Translations under genes and position numbers: made by a program
Notes under the pieces: generated by a model
Databases searched by the model: none
What the model was told of the DNA's origin: nothing
What the model saw: the letters and a program-made list of their open reading frames with translations, nothing else
Source of the DNA: Minisyncoccales bacterium
GTDB lineage: Bacteria > Patescibacteriota > Minisyncoccia > Minisyncoccales > JAGMDC01
DNA length: 47,507 nt
Reading direction: 5' to 3'
Assembly (NCBI GenBank): GCA_049642725.1
Contig: JBARPC010000005.1
Coordinates: 1-47,507 of the forward strand
In this document: positions 28,603 to 46,876 of the stretch, piece by piece
How positions within the stretch are numbered: the stretch's first letter is position 1
Layout: every line of letters begins with the position of its first letter

Positions 28603-28857
28603 AGACAATAGAATATATCCTTAAGTAGTGTCTCACTCTCATTTCTCGAACAGAACACCTAAACTGAGACACAGGGGTGAGACATTCCCGAAAGCTTCAA
28701 AACGGGACACTCAACTGTTCCATTGGAACACCCCCTTTTCGTGTTCCGTTTGTTCCGTTTTAGCTTCAAAATGCCCGACCGAGACGGGTCAATGGAACAC
28801 GCCGAAAATAGCCTGAATTACCCTTAAAATCTCGGTTCTGGACCGAGGTTGTCTGCC
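28603..28857 (+). ncRNA. Structured repeat element with tRNA-like 3' end (candidate tRNA-like RNA or MITE)
   Basis: 5' agacaat (28603-28609) can pair with 3' gttgtct (28847-28853), followed by g+CCA. T-arm-like ctcgg-ttctgga-ccgag. An internal palindrome gttccaTtggaac and a gttccgttt x2 direct repeat are present. A partial homologue lies at 46698-46876. Confidence 0.4.
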
Positions 28858-28886
28858 ATCACATGCTAAGTCAAGTGACTGAGACG
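28858..28886 (+). repeat. 29-nt trailer tcacatgctaagtcaagtgactgagacgc, copy 2
   Basis: Same motif as 4263-4291 and again placed immediately after a ...tgcca end. Confidence 0.7.
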
Positions 28887-28917
28887 CCTTAATTCGAGTC
28901 ACAAGGGGGAATAGGAT

Positions 28918-28941
28918 GGTGCTCGGTTCGAGCGACCGAGA
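28918..28941 (+). repeat. 24-bp direct repeat gtgctcggttcgagcgaccgagac, right copy
   Basis: Matches 10718-10741. It is followed by a T-run (ggtttattttt), so it may also act as a terminator. Confidence 0.7.
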
Positions 28942-29076
28942 CAGGTTTATTTTTACAATTCTAGTCTAAATTGCGGTCGCTGATCGAAAATAAAAACGGC
29001 TGAGTTTAGCCGTTTTTAAGACTCAGAAGAATAGTTTTTATTTTTTAATTCAAGATTATATATTTATACCTTAGCG

Positions 29077-29164
29077 AATCAAGGTTCTGCCGAGCGTCAG
29101 CGAGGCAGGTTCTTAATTACAAAGTAATCAAGGTTCTGCTGAGCGTCAGCGAGGCAGGTTCTTA
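29077..29164. repeat. Tandem direct repeat (2 x 39 bp, 49-bp period) duplicating the 3' end of the XRE gene
   Basis: aatcaaggttctgcYgagcgtcagcgaggcaggttctta appears twice. The reverse complement encodes ...KNLPR*, the C-terminus of gene 29146..29529. Confidence 0.8.
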
Positions 29165-29529
29165 TATTTTTTATCAACGATTTCTTTAGCCATTTCTATG
29201 TCGCGGATAGCTTGAGGCGAAAGATGATATTTTGCCCGGAGATATTGCGGAAGATCAGGAAGCTCATACTCGTCACTATCAACTAAGCCGGCTTCTTTCA
29301 AGAGAGCTCCTACTGGTATGTTATAAAATTTTGAAAGTTTCAATAGGGTATGAATATTGATAGTGAAAAAAGAATTGCCGTTTTCAATTTTGAAAAGATA
29401 ACTGGGAGCTATTCTAGATTTTTCAGCTACTTCCCTGATTGATAGTTCAGATTCTTTTCTCAATTGTTTAAGATAGGTTCCTAATTTTTTCATTTCGTAA
29501 GGAATTGTTTTTTTCAAAGTTTTTAGCAT
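29146..29529 (-). CDS. XRE-family HTH transcriptional regulator
   Basis: LRKESELSIREVAEKSRIAPSYLFKIENG matches an HTH_3 domain. Confidence 0.7.
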   Translation of the reverse strand: MLKTLKKTIPYEMKKLGTYLKQLRKESELSIREVAEKSRIAPSYLFKIENGNSFFTINIHTLLKLSKFYNIPVGALLKEAGLVDSDEYELPDLPQYLRAKYHLSPQAIRDIEMAKEIVDKKYKNLPR

Positions 29530-29867
29530 AGCACCTGTGGATAACTTTAATTATTTATTTTAGTTTACTAAATCAAAAAATTCTGTCAAGAGACATTTTG
29601 TTATTTAAAATAAACAAATAAGAAAGTAGGCTCTTAGTTTTAACTTATTTTTTGATAATTAAATTAAAAATGCCCTCCCTCCCCTGAGAGTATGTTCTCT
29701 TAAAGAAATAATTTGTAGATTTCAATAAATAACTCAAAATTGGCTTGACAGCATTGATTGACTTCTTAATAAAGAGTATAATGAAACAAGTTATTAAAAA
29801 GAAGATTTACTAAAGAAGATTTACTATGAAAATAATCAAAGAAGTAACTAAAATTTCAGCGCGCACG

Positions 29868-29895
29868 GAGAGAGAGAGAGAGAGAGAGAGAGAGA
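29868..29895. repeat. (GA)14 dinucleotide microsatellite
   Basis: gagagagagagagagagagagagagaga, about 420 bp upstream of gvpA. Confidence 0.9.
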
Positions 29896-30118
29896 CGAAT
29901 TTGCCGCGGGATTTAGCTCTAAGAGTTTCGTATTTTGTATTAAAAACAAATCTCTGTTGCTTGCCCCGTATAATCCTGAAAGGATTTGTTCGGGGCTAAT
30001 TTAGTGACGGAGGTTTTTGTTTTTAAAAAACGTTTCAGAAATTTAGAATAACTTAATCCTTAAGAATAAAATAAAGCTCTTAATTGTGGTTGGATACAAT
30101 TAGGAGTTTTTATTTGTT

Positions 30119-30187
30119 TAGATATCTGAATGGGGCGTGGGAGGGCTAGAAAATCCAACTACTTCCCACGCCCGATCCAGATATCTA
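30119..30187. promoter_or_regulatory. Imperfect 25-bp inverted repeat (candidate operator or RNA hairpin) upstream of gvpA
   Basis: tagatatctgaatggggcgtgggagg ...20 nt... cttcccacgcccgatccagatatcta. Confidence 0.4.
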
Positions 30188-44954: not shown

Positions 44955-44982
44955 TTAAAATAATAAATAATTAATTAAAACT

Positions 44983-45291
44983 ATGGCACAACAAATTGCT
45001 CACGGTATAGAAGCCACAAACTTAGCTGATATTTTGGAACGAGTTTTAGATAAAGGAATTGTTATTGCTGGCGACATTCAGATTAAGCTAGCCGATGTTG
45101 AATTGCTGACCATCAAAATTAGATTATTGATTGCTTCAGTAGATAAAGCCAAAGAAATGGGAATTAATTGGTGGGAGACTGATTCTTATTTGAGTAGCCA
45201 AGCAAGAGAGATAGAGTCAGAAAAGGAAAGAATAAAACTAGAGAAGAAAGTGGAAGAACTCGAGAAAAAGCTGAAACCTAAAGCCGAATAA
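44983..45291 (+). CDS. Small GvpA-superfamily protein (GvpM/S/K-like)
   Basis: LADILERVLDKGIVIAGDIQIKLADVELLTIKIRLLIASV. Confidence 0.6.
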   Translation: MAQQIAHGIEATNLADILERVLDKGIVIAGDIQIKLADVELLTIKIRLLIASVDKAKEMGINWWETDSYLSSQAREIESEKERIKLEKKVEELEKKLKPKAE

Positions 45292-45368
45292 AAACCAAGG
45301 TCGAACCCACGCACCAAAATAAATTCGGTGCGGGGTAAATATTTTCAAATAATTAAATTCTATTTATT

Positions 45369-45650
45369 ATGACTACAACTACTTCAGATAAAACTCAGGC
45401 CAAAGCTATAGAAGAATTGCTGGAAATGGCAAAAACCTGGGGAGAAGAACCAGGCAAGATTCAGCATGCTATTGAAACTTATGAGAGGGTAATAGGAATT
45501 GACCCGGAAAGCAAAGAAGCAGAGCGGGCTAGAGAAGCCCTGCTTGAAATAGCCAAAAGGTTTGAAAAGGAAGGAAAAAAATATTCAGCTTATTATCTTT
45601 ATCAAAAAATAGGTTATGGAAGAGAGGGCATGTCTAAAAGACCTGTTTAA
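45369..45650 (+). CDS. Hypothetical helical protein
   Basis: 93-aa ORF preceded by a hairpin + AAGGTCGAA motif. Confidence 0.4.
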   Translation: MTTTTSDKTQAKAIEELLEMAKTWGEEPGKIQHAIETYERVIGIDPESKEAERAREALLEIAKRFEKEGKKYSAYYLYQKIGYGREGMSKRPV

Positions 45651-45734
45651 TTAGAGCTAAAGTAAAATTTTTTATTTAGCTAGTTATACTACTAAATTTA
45701 TATTAGATTAATTTAACTTTTTTGGTTAAAGAAA

Positions 45735-45950
45735 ATGCCCATCCAAGTAAAAACAATGAGAGATATTTGGGATAAAGGAAAAGAAAAAAAGGAAGTAAAA
45801 AAGTATAAAACTCTTCCGCCAAAGATCGAGAAGTATTACCTTGAGTATTTGGCCAGAAAGAAAGCATTCTTGGAGACAAAAGATGAAATAGTTAAAGCTT
45901 TTTCCGAACACGAAAAGAAGTTAGGAGAGGCTGGATTCTCAAAGATTTAG
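45735..45950 (+). CDS. Small hypothetical protein
   Basis: 71 aa and lysine-rich. Confidence 0.3.
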   Translation: MPIQVKTMRDIWDKGKEKKEVKKYKTLPPKIEKYYLEYLARKKAFLETKDEIVKAFSEHEKKLGEAGFSKI

Positions 45951-45995
45951 TAAACCACGTTAGAGATTCATCTCTAAACGGGGTAAAGAAGAAAT

Positions 45996-46565
45996 ATGCC
46001 AAAAGAGAAAAATTTAATTAAAGTAGCTGAGCCCCGGGTTCAAAAAATAAATATTAAAAAAAGACGGAGCAGAAAGAAGCCGGAGATTGAGTTTAAATCA
46101 ATTAGGAAGTTTTTAGTTTCAATTATTATTCTATTGGCTATTCTTTTATTGCTTGAATCAACCCAAATTTTTTTACAATTCAAAAAAACTATTGTTCAGC
46201 GTCCGGTATATATGGCGGAAGGACAACCAATTGATATCGATGCTTATTTGCGCGAGTATTTTGTCAATACAATTCCTAAAAAGATAATGTATGTGACGGT
46301 TACTGCCTATTCAAGTACAAATGGCCAAACTGATGGAACCCCTTACTTAACTGCCATTGGTACTCCAGTTCGCGATGGGATAATAGCCGCAAATTTTTTA
46401 CCAATAGGGACGGTGGTCCGTTTGCCGGATAAATTTGGAGAAAAACTTTTTGTGGTAGAAGATCGAATGCACGAAAAATATGGCCTTCAGATTGATATCT
46501 GGATGTCTGCGCAGGAAGAAGCAAAAAAATTTGGTATTCAATATTTAAAAATGGAGATTTTTTAA
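45996..46565 (+). CDS. 3D-domain protein (MltA/YuiC-like, putative cell-wall-binding or lytic) with N-terminal membrane anchor
   Basis: VTVTAYSSTNGQTDGTPYLTAIGTPVRDGIIAANFLPIGTVVRLPDKFGEKLFVVEDRMHEKYGLQIDIW. Confidence 0.55.
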   Translation: MPKEKNLIKVAEPRVQKINIKKRRSRKKPEIEFKSIRKFLVSIIILLAILLLLESTQIFLQFKKTIVQRPVYMAEGQPIDIDAYLREYFVNTIPKKIMYVTVTAYSSTNGQTDGTPYLTAIGTPVRDGIIAANFLPIGTVVRLPDKFGEKLFVVEDRMHEKYGLQIDIWMSAQEEAKKFGIQYLKMEIF

Positions 46566-46697
46566 AGTTTAGTTTTAATTTTATAAATTTTTGACTCCTT
46601 GACGAAGTTTTTTATTACTGCTGGAAAATTTGATTTAGCTTATAGGTAGTTTCTGGATAAAAATTAAACTTGTTGTTTAAGCCAAAATGGAACGCTT

Positions 46698-46876
46698 CAC
46701 TGTTCCATTCGGAACACTCCCTTTCCGTGTTCCATTTGTCTCATTTTAGCTTCAAAACACCCTGATTTATCCGTCCGAAGCTTTAGCGGAGGAGGACTGA
46801 GACGCGTTAATGAGACACCCTGAAAACCGCCCAATTTCCCTTTAAAATCTTGGTTCTAGACCGAGGATGCCTGCAA
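46698..46876 (+). repeat. Partial, diverged copy of the 28.6-kb structured repeat (right flank of the gvp island)
   Basis: Two blocks are shared with 28712-28772 (ctgttccattYggaacac...ttttagcttcaaaa) and 28821-28857 (cccttWaaaatctYggttctRgaccgagg...ctgc). Confidence 0.7.

Follow-up and report, generated by a model that had tools for sequence, protein, structure and literature searches.

Genomic islands, prophages and satellites inserted at the 3' ends of tRNA genes pile up in tandem, as in the tycheposons of Prochlorococcus. Large serine integrases need att sites of 40–50 bp, which are expected to have dyad symmetry around a central dinucleotide, and to our knowledge they normally have no need of long homologous arms or of identity repeats of 35 nt, nor do they create them. 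We compared with these systems a patescibacterial locus in which a gas-vesicle (gvp) cluster lies between two direct repeats, within a window that is an entire 47.5-kb contig. Judged from sequence, the repeats appear to be copies of a conserved module at the outer end of serine-recombinase elements that insert beside tRNA genes in Patescibacteria. As the repeats would mark the outer end of such elements, the gas-vesicle operon would be one unit in an insertion stack behind tRNA-Trp; a junction-element family with tandem insertions at that gene (4.29–46.87 kb), the gas-vesicle cluster forming the distal unit, is our best model, and we consider it somewhat probable.

Repeat structure and family

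The direct repeats flanking the gas-vesicle cluster are genuine, with about 80% identity over the aligned bases of their cores (Table 1; comparison loci carry numbers with the prefix L). A blastn search of the left region against the window retrieved the right copy at E 3e-17, and a self-repeat scan returned two pairs (28725–28776 with 46711–46762, 85%; 28698–28740 with 46683–46725, 72%). The first-pass annotation had described two separate recurring blocks of a structured element of about 250 bp, immediately outside the first and last island genes. The recurrence was borne out, but MAFFT aligned a single continuous homologous core (28698–28860 against 46683–46874), about 165 nt long in the left copy and with a 32-nt insertion (46763–46794) in the right. 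The element is indeed structured, but the left copy spans about 345 nt (28600–28942), being extended by a further 5' module and a 3' hairpin module, both absent from the right copy. The flanking position also holds, with measured gaps of 116 nt from the last conserved cluster gene (45996–46565) to the right copy and of 286 nt from the left core end to the stop codon of the divergent HTH regulator (29146–29529); gvpA lies about 1.46 kb from the left core end.

Table 1. Coordinates of the features identified in the window.
Feature	Position	Strand	Evidence and remarks
tRNA-Trp gene	4189–4262	+	ARAGORN and Rfam tRNA model; proposed anchor (attB side) of the stack
Junction S1	4257–4291	+	Last 6 nt of tRNA-Trp (CTGCCA) and 29-nt motif M (TCATATGCTAAGTCAGGTGACTGAGACGC)
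Junction S2	10693–10741	+	Degenerate tRNA-3'-end-like GCGTTCAACACGGTGGAGCA, joined at GCAA (10710–10713) to the 3' module hairpin GCTCGGTTCGAGCGACCAAG
Two-way terminator hairpin, between 3' module and 302-aa gene	10756–10786	.	Terminator scan
302-aa end gene (p302)	10808–11716	-	Homologues of 56–84% identity, adjoining LOOT and recombinase in L012, L041, L042 and L044–47
LOOT RNA (RF03000)	11793–11914	-	98.6 bits against a gathering score of 46.4; between recombinase gene and p302
Large serine recombinase	11950–13269	-	Pfam Resolvase, Recombinase and Zn_ribbon_recom
Terminase large subunit, small-terminase-like HTH protein and ParB-N6/N4 methylase	13392–16629	-	phrog_38, E 2e-65; Pfam; synteny
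HTH_17 excisionase-like gene	17425–17604	+	Pfam; PHROG excisionase and HTH families; at the switch to cargo genes
Module A' of left copy	28600–28695	+	ATGAGACA...GTCTCA; GAGAC-type paralogue of module A; conserved in L002, L007, L014 and L044
Left core	28696–28860	+	Modules A and B and tRNA-like 3' half; covariance model R1, alignment, structure counts
Second 35-nt repeat member (CTGCCA and motif M)	28853–28887	+	Continues the left core directly
tRNA-end-like remnant, 3' module hairpin (28921–28940) and two-way terminator (28991–29018)	28901–29018	+	Repeat match to S2; terminator scan
Gas-vesicle unit	29146–46565	+	Pfam; homologues in L036–L038
Right core	46681–46876	+	Modules A and B and tRNA-Gln-like 3' half; R1, blastn

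Within this genome two core copies could be examined, and both are seeds of the covariance model R1 (183 bits for the left, 168 bits for the right). The core ends in a mimic of the 3' half of tRNA-Gln (T arm and acceptor strand), terminating in ...GC(C)A. This half reads CTCGG-TTCTGGA-CCGAG-GTTGTCT-G-CCA in the left copy (28831–28858) and CTTGG-TTCTAGA-CCGAG-GATGCCT-G-CA in the right (46849–46875). Position 46849 is the single best match to a tRNA-Gln 3' half in the window (18/27, the top of about 95,000 positions, with no other reaching 17), and the canonical core end CTTGGTTCTAGACCGAGGATGCCAGCA agrees with the tRNA-Gln 3' half of L042 at 19 of 27 positions. The right core terminates at GCAA (46873–46876), with unrelated AT-rich DNA beyond.

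Elsewhere, we identified the core pattern in one Ca. Nealsonbacteria MAG and about 11 genuine metagenome contigs, and the covariance model found more partial copies, on the same strand and 0.7–3 kb apart. The module often occurs in same-strand arrays with variable genes in between, and many copies lack module A or module B.

Alternatively, the element might be chiefly a family of genes for small structured RNAs, with sRNA paralogues on mobile elements and chromosomes, whose 3'-end rearrangements reflect ordinary homologous recombination or a landing pad and which has no att function of its own. The consensus fold has 36 pairs, with 96.5% of cells paired and both partners changed in four pairs (among them GUCUCA/UGAGAC in the right copy), and the observed pairing values were reached in 4–6 of 500 shuffles. 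G-U pairs occupy 16 columns against 4 for A-C, the consensus fold reaches -29.2 on the plus and -23.5 on the minus strand, and the corresponding z-scores are -1.7 and -2.3 against -0.6; conserved unpaired C-rich stretches and terminators after many copies point the same way. However, folding was predicted on the plus strand, which biases the G-U count, and single-sequence folding energies favour the minus strand. Helix P3 is broken in many copies that lack module A or B, a protein dimer binding to inverted repeats would produce the same covariation, and we found neither a matching Rfam family nor a convincing promoter. We consider a primarily RNA-based role unlikely.

The arrays, with one or two genes between same-strand copies, also invite comparison with integron cassettes: the element would act as a large attC-like site, and a site-specific recombinase would shuffle the intervening genes as cassettes, which would range from single toxin-antitoxin pairs to the 17-kb gvp operon. 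Genes of this kind include a RelE/RHH-like pair between copies in L013 (by ORF reading), an aldehyde-dehydrogenase-like gene in L011, a 284-aa ORF in L006 and, in L002, a methylase together with a restriction-enzyme-like pair. A complex attC-like structure has a precedent in the DUF1874 motif (PMC5737381). Yet none of the loci contains a tyrosine IntI integrase, the sole recombinase being a large serine recombinase inside a terminase-bearing element. The junction element is 2–3 times the length of attC and has no R/L box layout, and partial, decayed copies are better explained by erosion of stacked insertions; we consider cassette shuffling very improbable.

A MITE-like origin, which the first-pass annotation had also offered, did not survive the comparison. 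If a MITE or another non-autonomous transposon had happened to land on each side of the cluster, this would suit a multi-copy, non-coding element of about 170–350 nt with GC above its surroundings, but terminal inverted repeats and target-site duplications are both absent and no transposase is associated. The copies are modular and truncated at module boundaries and a fixed point rather than at element ends, all share the orientation of neighbouring genes, and they combine a fixed 3' breakpoint with tRNA mimicry; we give this explanation almost no credence.

Mobile element and fixed breakpoint

The comparisons establish family membership, synteny, a fixed breakpoint, tRNA adjacency and mosaic repeats. 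We identified in at least six loci a syntenic element with a ParB-methylase, terminase, large serine recombinase, LOOT RNA and 302-aa gene, and with the module at its far end. By synteny, this is a mobile element in which these genes together occupy one end and variable cargo the other. Its common layout (minus-strand recombinase, then cargo, then plus-strand junction element) holds in the window, L014, L016 (weakly), L020, L021 and L044/45. The terminase and ParB-methylase genes constitute the conserved core module, being syntenic in L016–L026 and L041–L049, and relatives of the recombinase (44–81% identity) were found on 11 viral contigs and at other loci. The position of LOOT is kept in L012, L041, L042 and L044, that of the excisionase-like gene in L041, L042 and L048, and the terminator hairpin at 10.7 kb recurs in L041. 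Pfam and PHROG revealed no recognisable capsid, portal or tail genes in the recombinase unit. The junction element probably belongs to the mobile element itself, given that the unit module is syntenic in viral contigs, with the terminase confirmed.

Every rearrangement breakpoint falls directly after the 3' end of the core. The upstream ORFs of L011/L015 and L012 are 98–100% identical and the core is the same, with divergence right after GATGCCAGC; beyond it, L012 carries homologues of p302, LOOT, the recombinase and terminase. About 14 copies vary in sequence after GCCAGC(A). From the comparison of L011 with L012, outer-arm copies themselves appear to act as landing pads. In both loci the core follows housekeeping-looking genes, which we take from ORF reading to be xseA and xseB, and some copies are therefore resident and not at an obvious element end. 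In L016 and L024 the 3' end of tRNA-Gln directly adjoins the recombinase end, and in L048/49 that of tRNA-Ser does so; the 3' module directly follows tRNA-Gln in L042, and a tRNA-Gln lies upstream of a p302 remnant in L050. Homologous recombination between copies could yield the same breakpoints.

Within the window, the left-copy region is mosaic, having parts in common with the right copy, with the tRNA-Trp 3' end and with the hairpin by the recombinase element at 10.7 kb. The 35-nt direct repeat shared by S1 and the left copy is identical at 33 of 35 positions, with none expected by chance, and motif M is also found after tRNA-Gln in L016 and after a degenerate core in L006. S2 is the recombinase-side arm (P') and is 81% identical to 28901–28942 over 42 nt; homologous junctions are present in L041 and L042, the latter with the tRNA-like 3' end ...CGCCGGAGCA, then GGCTAGTGCTCGGTTCTAGAGACCGAG. 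In our reading, the left core forms the recombinase-bearing unit's outer (P) arm, and we propose 28901–29018 as the left boundary (P' arm) of the gas-vesicle unit.

Gas-vesicle cluster

The gas-vesicle unit comprises the minus-strand HTH regulator, gvpA (30320–30526), gvpN, an Hsp20/GvpH-like gene, a CDC48 AAA ATPase, a Volactin-like actin, a GvpF/L-DnaJ fusion, ArsA, GvpG, GvpO, a GvpJ-K fusion, GvpJ/M and three small conserved ORFs. L036–L038 contain homologues of the regulator and nearly all other cluster proteins, through the final 189-aa ORF, and none of the flanking 438-aa and 91-aa ORFs. The cluster is syntenic in L036–L040, where housekeeping genes lie on its flanks, and the repeat element is absent around these homologous clusters of other Patescibacteria. 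In the window, the conserved cluster exactly fills the interval between the two junction modules, and is probably a self-contained unit. It has no recombinase of its own; any remaining mobility would therefore need action in trans or co-movement with its neighbour. The right-flank ORF is an orphan, and exact-protein matches are from the same assembly only.

The island had been thought richer in GC than its flanks, as a sign of horizontal acquisition. This is true locally (35.5% in the gvp segment against 30.1% at 17.4–28.6 kb) but not generally: the housekeeping stretch at 1–4.26 kb has 36.5% GC and the tetranucleotide profile closest to the gvp segment (r 0.963), so composition does not mark the cluster as foreign.

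Model of insertion

In the tandem stack, an element would insert at tRNA gene 3' ends and carry at its cargo end an outward-pointing junction element, made up of structured modules A', A and B and the tRNA-Gln mimic, with recombination directly after the latter's end. At an unsplit site, the junction element would run on into the recombinase-side arm, either the 3' module hairpin and terminator or motif M. S1 would be tRNA-Trp joined to M; S2, a tRNA-like remnant joined to the 3' module; S3, the left core joined to M, then a remnant joined to the 3' module; and S4, the right core joined to native AT-rich DNA. The left repeat would be the right end of the neighbouring recombinase unit, and the right repeat that of the gas-vesicle unit, whose left limit would be the 3' module and terminator at 28.90–29.02 kb. 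The gas-vesicle cluster would be next after the recombinase unit, and the oldest unit. We infer this insertion order, and the large serine recombinase as the enzyme responsible. The att-like character suggested at first thus stands insofar as the repeats would be att-associated recombination-junction modules; a simple attL/attR pair for the gas-vesicle island was not supported, the left copy being the neighbouring unit's right end and running into a tRNA-Trp 3'-end copy. For this genome we saw neither an empty site nor a circular junction.

Against the stack, junctions S2 and S3 need extra deletions to fit, and a single 36-kb composite pairing S2 with S4 fits some data equally well. This would be one serine-recombinase element (10.71–46.87 kb) with gas-vesicle cargo, attL at 10.71 kb and attR in the right copy, the left copy being the fossil of an internal junction formed when two elements fused earlier. 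Its attL and attR share a 4-nt overlap, GCAA, at which the right copy stops and the 10.7-kb module starts. Joining the end at 46876 to 10714 onward rebuilds a canonical element, aligned with L006/L014, with no gap at the join and the exact 16-nt spacing of L006; the sole recombinase is at the 10.7-kb end, and about 60 nt are inserted between the left copy's two arms. However, the 35-nt repeat pairs tRNA-Trp with the left copy, in intervals that interleave with the composite pairing, and the GCAA overlap may merely reflect the breakpoint common to all junctions. No relative of the mobile element carries gvp genes, and the reconstructed attB has no significant dyad symmetry, reconstructed attP and attB doing no better than shuffles in an ungapped dyad test. 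We judge the composite improbable and prefer the tandem stack.

Comparison with known systems

As in large serine integrase systems of the phiC31, Bxb1 and A118 type, the locus has only one large serine recombinase and a breakpoint confined to a few bases, between two hairpin-like half-regions (CTTGG..CCGAG, CTCGG..CCGAG). Unlike their attP/attB sites, it has no significant simple dyad symmetry, conserved sequence far exceeding 40–50 bp, and at one junction pair a 35-nt direct repeat, a trait of tyrosine integrases. Phage-inducible chromosomal islands and terminase-carrying satellites similarly combine integrase and terminase with no recognised capsid, portal or tail genes, a likeness by gene content only, although here the recombinase is a large serine recombinase and both terminase subunits are present. 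We know of no helper phage for this terminase-bearing element.

Like integron attC sites and the DUF1874 motif (Weinberg et al. 2017, PMC5737381), the junction element is a conserved structured non-coding element in consecutive same-strand intergenic regions with unrelated genes between, but it lacks IntI, is modular and longer, has a tRNA-mimic end and is tied to a terminase-bearing element. The LOOT RNA motif occurs in the same mobile elements and lineage; it differs in sequence and structure and lies by the recombinase gene, whereas the junction element, which has no Rfam model, lies at the opposite, cargo end.

As in tRNA-3'-end islands of the tycheposon type, recombinase and cargo occupy opposite ends, the distal junction holds an incomplete copy of the tRNA 3' end, reuse of one tRNA site stacks units with att remnants between them, and there are cargo units without a recombinase. 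The locus differs in that the distal arm has an extra conserved structured module of 110–200 nt (A', A, B) before the tRNA-like part, that arm copies apparently serve as landing pads, that the hosts are Patescibacteria, and that one unit is a complete gas-vesicle operon.

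A repeated junction module on both sides of the gas-vesicle cluster

We identified a single homologous core on either side of the gas-vesicle genes, its two copies aligning with approximately 80% identity over aligned bases and matching each other by blastn with an E value of 3e-17. The two recurring blocks described in the first-pass annotation were recovered within this core by both repeat search and alignment. The right copy contains a 32-nt insertion, and the left copy is larger, being extended by a further 5' module (ATGAGACA...GTCTCA) and by a 3' hairpin module. As a mosaic, the left-copy region matches three other places in the window, namely the right copy, the end of tRNA-Trp, and an orphan module at 10.7 kb. 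The window comprises all 47,507 nt of its contig, which belongs to a Minisyncoccales MAG. The positions of these and the other features discussed are collected in the table.

When exact proteins were looked up, the only matches were Logan contigs of the same sample, which break at the repeats, and neither these look-ups nor a search with the right-flank protein (an orphan of 91 aa) found an empty site or circle for the window's own site. Two independent short-read contigs of the same population (L001 and L028, Logan SRR28062514) stop at 29121 and at ~46871. The first position lies within a 39-nt tandem repeat and the second where the right copy ends, and both stops look like assembly breaks caused by repeats.

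Features of the contig and of the proposed junctions
Feature	Position	Strand	Remark
GIY-YIG nuclease ORF	1486-1725		between tRNA-Tyr and tRNA-Thr
rpmG (ribosomal protein L33)	2140-2304
NTP_transf_6 gene	2311-2895		followed by rpmG-end copy
rpmG-end copy	2901-2967
HIT gene	2972-3427		followed by rpmG-end copy
rpmG-end copy	3428-3494
tRNA-Trp 3' end and downstream flank	4257-4291
Putative junction S1	4.26 kb		tRNA-Trp / motif M
Methylase C-terminal fragment	10090-10170		orphan, just left of the 10.7-kb junction
Putative junction S2	10.71 kb		tRNA-like remnant / 3' module
Orphan 3' hairpin module by p302	10710-10713 (GCAA start)
p302, LOOT RNA, LSR, large terminase, small-terminase-like protein, ParB-methylase	10.8-17.4 kb	minus
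LOOT RNA	11793-11914	minus
LSR	11950-13269	minus
Excisionase-like HTH_17 gene			after ParB-methylase end of module
Cargo: Type ISP restriction enzyme, PIN protein, PIF1 helicase		plus	after HTH_17 gene
Methylase C-terminal fragments	20740-20815, 21436-21470, 22325-22375
Small ORFs	20873-21433, 21482-22324		each followed by a methylase fragment
Putative junction S3	28.60-29.02 kb		left core / M, then remnant / 3' module
Left copy	28600-28942		core 28698-28860
Terminator	28991-29018		after left copy's 3' hairpin module
Non-coding stretch, HTH regulator to gvpA	29077-30189		three repeats
Tandem 39-nt repeat	29077-29164		contains GC hairpin
(GA)14 run	~29866-29895
Near-perfect hairpin	30117-30189		26-nt arms
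Gas-vesicle cluster: divergent HTH regulator, gvpA, gvpN, Hsp20/GvpH-like, CDC48 ATPase, Volactin-like actin, three GvpF/L paralogues (one fused to DnaJ), ArsA, GvpG, GvpO, GvpJ-K fusion, GvpJ/M	between copies
Unusual cluster partners	34541-42975
Volactin-like actin homologue	37718-38761		E 2e-89
Right copy, core	46683-46874		ends at GCAA, 46873-46876
Insertion in right copy	46763-46794		32 nt
Putative junction S4	46.87 kb		right core / AT-rich DNA
Tandem repeat and DUF3800-type ORF	47353-47507		ORF starts 47445, runs off contig

Distribution of the element

Matches to the core pattern were identified in one genome contig (a Ca. Nealsonbacteria MAG) and in 13 metagenome contigs, 11 of which were genuine. 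Across copies 165 nt are well conserved and the flanks are unrelated. A covariance model built on 11 cores (R1) recovered additional partial copies in L002, L005, L006, L007, L011 and L013, on the same strand and 0.7-3 kb from the first copy. Copies of the element are modular; some are reduced to the 5' half (module A) and many to the 3' half (module B), to which the 3' hairpin module may or may not be attached. The intervening genes are mutually unrelated, and by our reading of the ORFs appear to include a methylase/restriction pair, a RelE/RHH-like pair, an aldehyde-dehydrogenase-like gene and a CYTH-like gene. Short same-strand arrays with one or two genes between copies occur in L013 (860-2735), L005 (2142-4221), L006 (4543-5729) and L011 (33-2271), the RelE/RHH-like pair and the aldehyde-dehydrogenase-like gene among them, in a pattern that resembles cassette arrays.

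No Rfam 15 family reached its gathering threshold over either copy, and searches at E values up to 10 returned noise only (e.g., RAGATH-28, E 8.3, on the opposite strand). Scans of viral contigs with three element patterns gave zero matches, or a single distant relative.

Resemblance to tRNA 3' ends and a fixed breakpoint

The last 27 nt of the core can be read as a T arm, acceptor strand and discriminator (CTTGG-TTCTAGA-CCGAG-GATGCCA-G-CA), and are identical at 19 of 27 positions to the 3' half of the tRNA-Gln of L042 (CTTGG-TTCGAAT-CCAAG-CCCGGCA-G-CA), whose best single match among ~95,000 window positions is the end of the right copy. Relatives of the element adjoin tRNA 3' ends in other loci, of tRNA-Gln in L016 and L024 and of tRNA-Ser in L048/49; in L042 the 3' hairpin module directly follows tRNA-Gln, with more junctions downstream, and in L050 a p302 remnant has tRNA-Gln upstream. 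Within the window, the left core ends ...GTCTGCCA and continues into TCACATGCTAAGTCAAGTGACTGAGACGC, and 33 of the 35 nt of the resulting string are identical to the tRNA-Trp 3' end and its downstream flank, with zero such matches expected by chance. The end of the left copy is CTGCCA plus the downstream motif of tRNA-Trp, a 29-nt string (motif M) that is also found after tRNA-Gln in L016 and after a degenerate core in L006.

A comparison between loci places the breakpoint. The upstream ORFs of L011/L015 and of L012 are 98-100% identical and their cores are the same, with divergence beginning directly after ...GAGGATGCCAGC; beyond this point L012 contains a 3' hairpin, a terminator, p302, LOOT and the recombinase. 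The same flank and core are here joined to different DNA exactly after GCCAGC. Among ~14 copies, the sequence following GCCAGC(A) varies between the 3' hairpin module, motif M and unrelated DNA.

A recombinase-bearing mobile element

To the left of the left copy lies a module that includes a large serine recombinase (LSR), a 302-aa protein gene (p302), the LOOT RNA (RF03000) and a large terminase (phrog_38, E 2e-65), and that is syntenic from p302 to the ParB-methylase in 11 viral contigs and in L041-L049. The LSR is found near one end of the inserted DNA, at a distance of 1.2 kb from junction S2; its place is the same in L012, L041, L042 and L044, and it is directly at the end in L016, L024 and L048. 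The junction element forms the far, cargo end, on the strand opposite to the recombinase module and directed outward, a layout seen in the window (left copy), L014, L020, L021 and L044/45, and weakly in L016.

Most features of tRNA-targeting integrative elements are present, namely a recombinase near one end, adjacency to tRNA 3' ends, and a partial tRNA 3' copy distally. The first-pass annotation had proposed att-like repeats, an idea that is supported in part. An att site of a large serine integrase would be 40-50 bp long, with imperfect dyad symmetry about a central dinucleotide. GCAA is shared by both junctions, and in an ungapped dyad scan of the reconstructed attP and attB, 389 and 223 of 500 shuffles scored at least as well as the motifs first spotted by eye, CTTGGT...ACCAAG and GTTCAA...TTGAAC, respectively.

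The LOOT RNA lies inside a serine-recombinase element in the window and in every well-covered relative (L012, L016-L019, L026, L041, L042 and L044), which gives this orphan RNA a genomic context. It is directly between the recombinase gene and p302 in five loci, and upstream of and divergent from the recombinase in L018, L019 and L026. The p302 gene of L048 is inverted relative to that of the window.

A proposed stack of insertions behind tRNA-Trp

The simplest account of the four junctions is a tandem stack of insertions behind tRNA-Trp, in which each junction would consist of the outer arm of the newer unit followed by the recombinase-side arm of the older one. The recombinase-bearing unit would extend from S2 to the left core, and the gas-vesicle unit would come next, bounded on one side by the 3' module and terminator (28.90-29.02 kb) and on the other by the right core. 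The orphan methylase fragment to the left of S2 fits a decayed unit between S1 and S2. The order of events, and the LSR as the enzyme responsible, are inferences.

The right copy ends with the same GCAA with which the orphan 3' hairpin module at 10.7 kb starts, and the two, when joined, form a canonical element that aligns to L006 and L014 without a gap at the join. A rival reading pairs S2 with S4 as the ends of a single 36-kb composite element, and we consider it unlikely. The repeats are junction modules under the stacked and the composite reading alike.

The gas-vesicle cluster as a portable module

No integrase was found among the genes of the interval between the copies. Homologues of the regulator and of nearly all the cluster proteins, up to the last small ORFs, were identified in five other clusters (L036-L040), which are flanked by housekeeping genes (DNA polymerase III delta' subunit, RRF, NrdD and a DAC-domain protein). 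This conserved gene set fills the S3-S4 interval exactly, and the flanking ORFs of the window are without counterparts in L036-L040. The first-pass annotation had noted a higher GC content as consistent with horizontal acquisition; the cluster resembles the housekeeping stretch of the contig (35.5% versus 36.5% GC; r 0.963), and only the neighbouring cargo is AT-richer. The cluster therefore behaves like a portable module that is passed around within the phylum, and the junctions suggest that it has been mobile at this site. As none of the five homologous clusters contains a copy of the element, we reject the element as a component of gas-vesicle clusters.

Homologues of the GvpF/L-DnaJ fusion are found in more than 100 clusters in Patescibacteria, including Doudnabacteria, Parcubacteria and Berkelbacteria, with 49-83% identity. 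The unusual partners within the cluster comprise this fusion, the Volactin-like actin homologue, a CDC48-type double AAA ATPase, a double ArsA ATPase and a holin-family membrane protein, and most of them are kept in other Patescibacteria clusters (L036-L038). The cluster of L036 is interrupted by a GIY-YIG ORF (12350-12622), another of which lies among the tRNA genes of the window.

Gene-end duplications

The 3' end of rpmG recurs twice downstream of the gene, each time as an intact 21-aa frame (LDLKKFCKWC(K/R)KHTAHKEGK(K/R)*) directly after one inserted gene. By sequence, this looks like the insertion of single-gene cassettes at the rpmG end, each bringing its own replacement 3' end. The C-terminus of a DNA methylase (...KIDKMVYKLYxLTxEEIKIVExF*) is similarly present as four fragments, one after the Type ISP gene, two after small ORFs and one an orphan, in the same signature of gene-end duplication. 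At the right end of the contig, a DUF3800-type ORF (FIFVDESGNFDF) is preceded by two tandem units of GTAAAAGAGAAAAAGGTGTCAG, and none of the Rfam DUF3800-associated RNA motifs scored in this region.

Structure of the element

RNAalifold predicted a 36-pair fold on the plus strand, with 96.5% of cells paired, in which P1 encloses a GUUCC/GGAAC hairpin and P3, formed by GUUCCAUU and AGUGGAAC, is followed by the T-arm-like hairpin. The 5' module A' is built on the same plan as P1, using GAGAC/GUCUC. Covariation is modest. Four pairs, GUCUCA/UGAGAC of the right copy among them, have changes on both sides, and the observed values were reached in 4-6 of 500 shuffles.

It is plausible from these models that the element is a transcribed, structured plus-strand RNA, as the consensus energy favours this strand (-29.2 versus -23.5 for the minus strand) and the z-scores are lower there (-1.7 and -2.3, versus -0.6). 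However, single-sequence energies favour the minus strand, half of the fold is missing from many copies, the same covariation would be expected of inverted protein-binding sites, and the excess of G-U over A-C is a count biased by the derivation of the fold on the plus strand. Promoter and terminator scans were at chance level, except for two-way terminators shared with convergent genes. The most likely role of the T-arm-like end together with the 3' module is that of the recombination site, at the level of DNA.

A wider reading, which we consider rather doubtful, is that A', A and B, at the cargo end of serine-recombinase elements, are joined to a mimic of a tRNA 3' half and make up a structured RNA (or single-stranded DNA) of a new class, each leftover copy serving as a "pseudo-tRNA" landing pad. 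The system would then be a serine-recombinase analogue of integrons in Patescibacteria, capturing and reshuffling cassettes as small as single toxin-antitoxin genes and as large as a gas-vesicle operon of 17 kb, with the rpmG and methylase C-terminus duplications as further products of like capture.

Comparison with known systems

Patescibacteria have tiny, streamlined genomes, and to our knowledge their acquisition of large traits is poorly understood. This locus presents a concrete route: a recurring mobile-element family, whose junction module is defined and whose breakpoint can be placed to within a few bases, seems to have put restriction systems, a whole gas-vesicle (buoyancy) operon and further cargo behind a single tRNA gene. 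The locus also yields a conserved structured motif that is not yet catalogued, together with candidate attP/attB sequences for a serine integrase of an uncultured lineage.

We compared the element with known classes of repeat and non-coding RNA. The first-pass annotation had also suggested MITE-like repeats, which is contradicted by ends (AAAATGAGACA... and ...GATGCCAGCA) that are not inverted repeats of each other and by the absence of flank duplication in 13 copies. Integron attC sites, defined by an IntI tyrosine integrase and hairpins of 57-141 nt with R/L boxes, were rejected, as the element is branched and 165-345 nt in length, and no annotated locus contains a tyrosine recombinase. Diversity-generating retroelement TR/VR pairs, marked by adenine-specific differences and a reverse transcriptase nearby, do not fit the mixture of transitions and transversions between copies, nor annotated ORFs without a reverse transcriptase; retrons and CRISPR were dismissed for want of a reverse transcriptase and of repeat-spacer arrays. 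A TnpB/IscB guide RNA was set aside, since upstream genes vary by locus and neither Pfam nor PHROG gave a hit for the 438-aa protein that precedes the left copy; a riboswitch or leader was set aside because the downstream genes are mutually unrelated.

The overall arrangement works like that of the well-known tRNA-anchored integrative elements and their tandem arrays. New to it are a conserved module with structure that is joined to a mimic of half a tRNA and is apparently used again as a landing pad, the association of this module with the LOOT-bearing serine-recombinase and terminase elements of Patescibacteria, and a gas-vesicle operon that forms, in its entirety, one unit. The searchable literature contained no account of these features that we could find.
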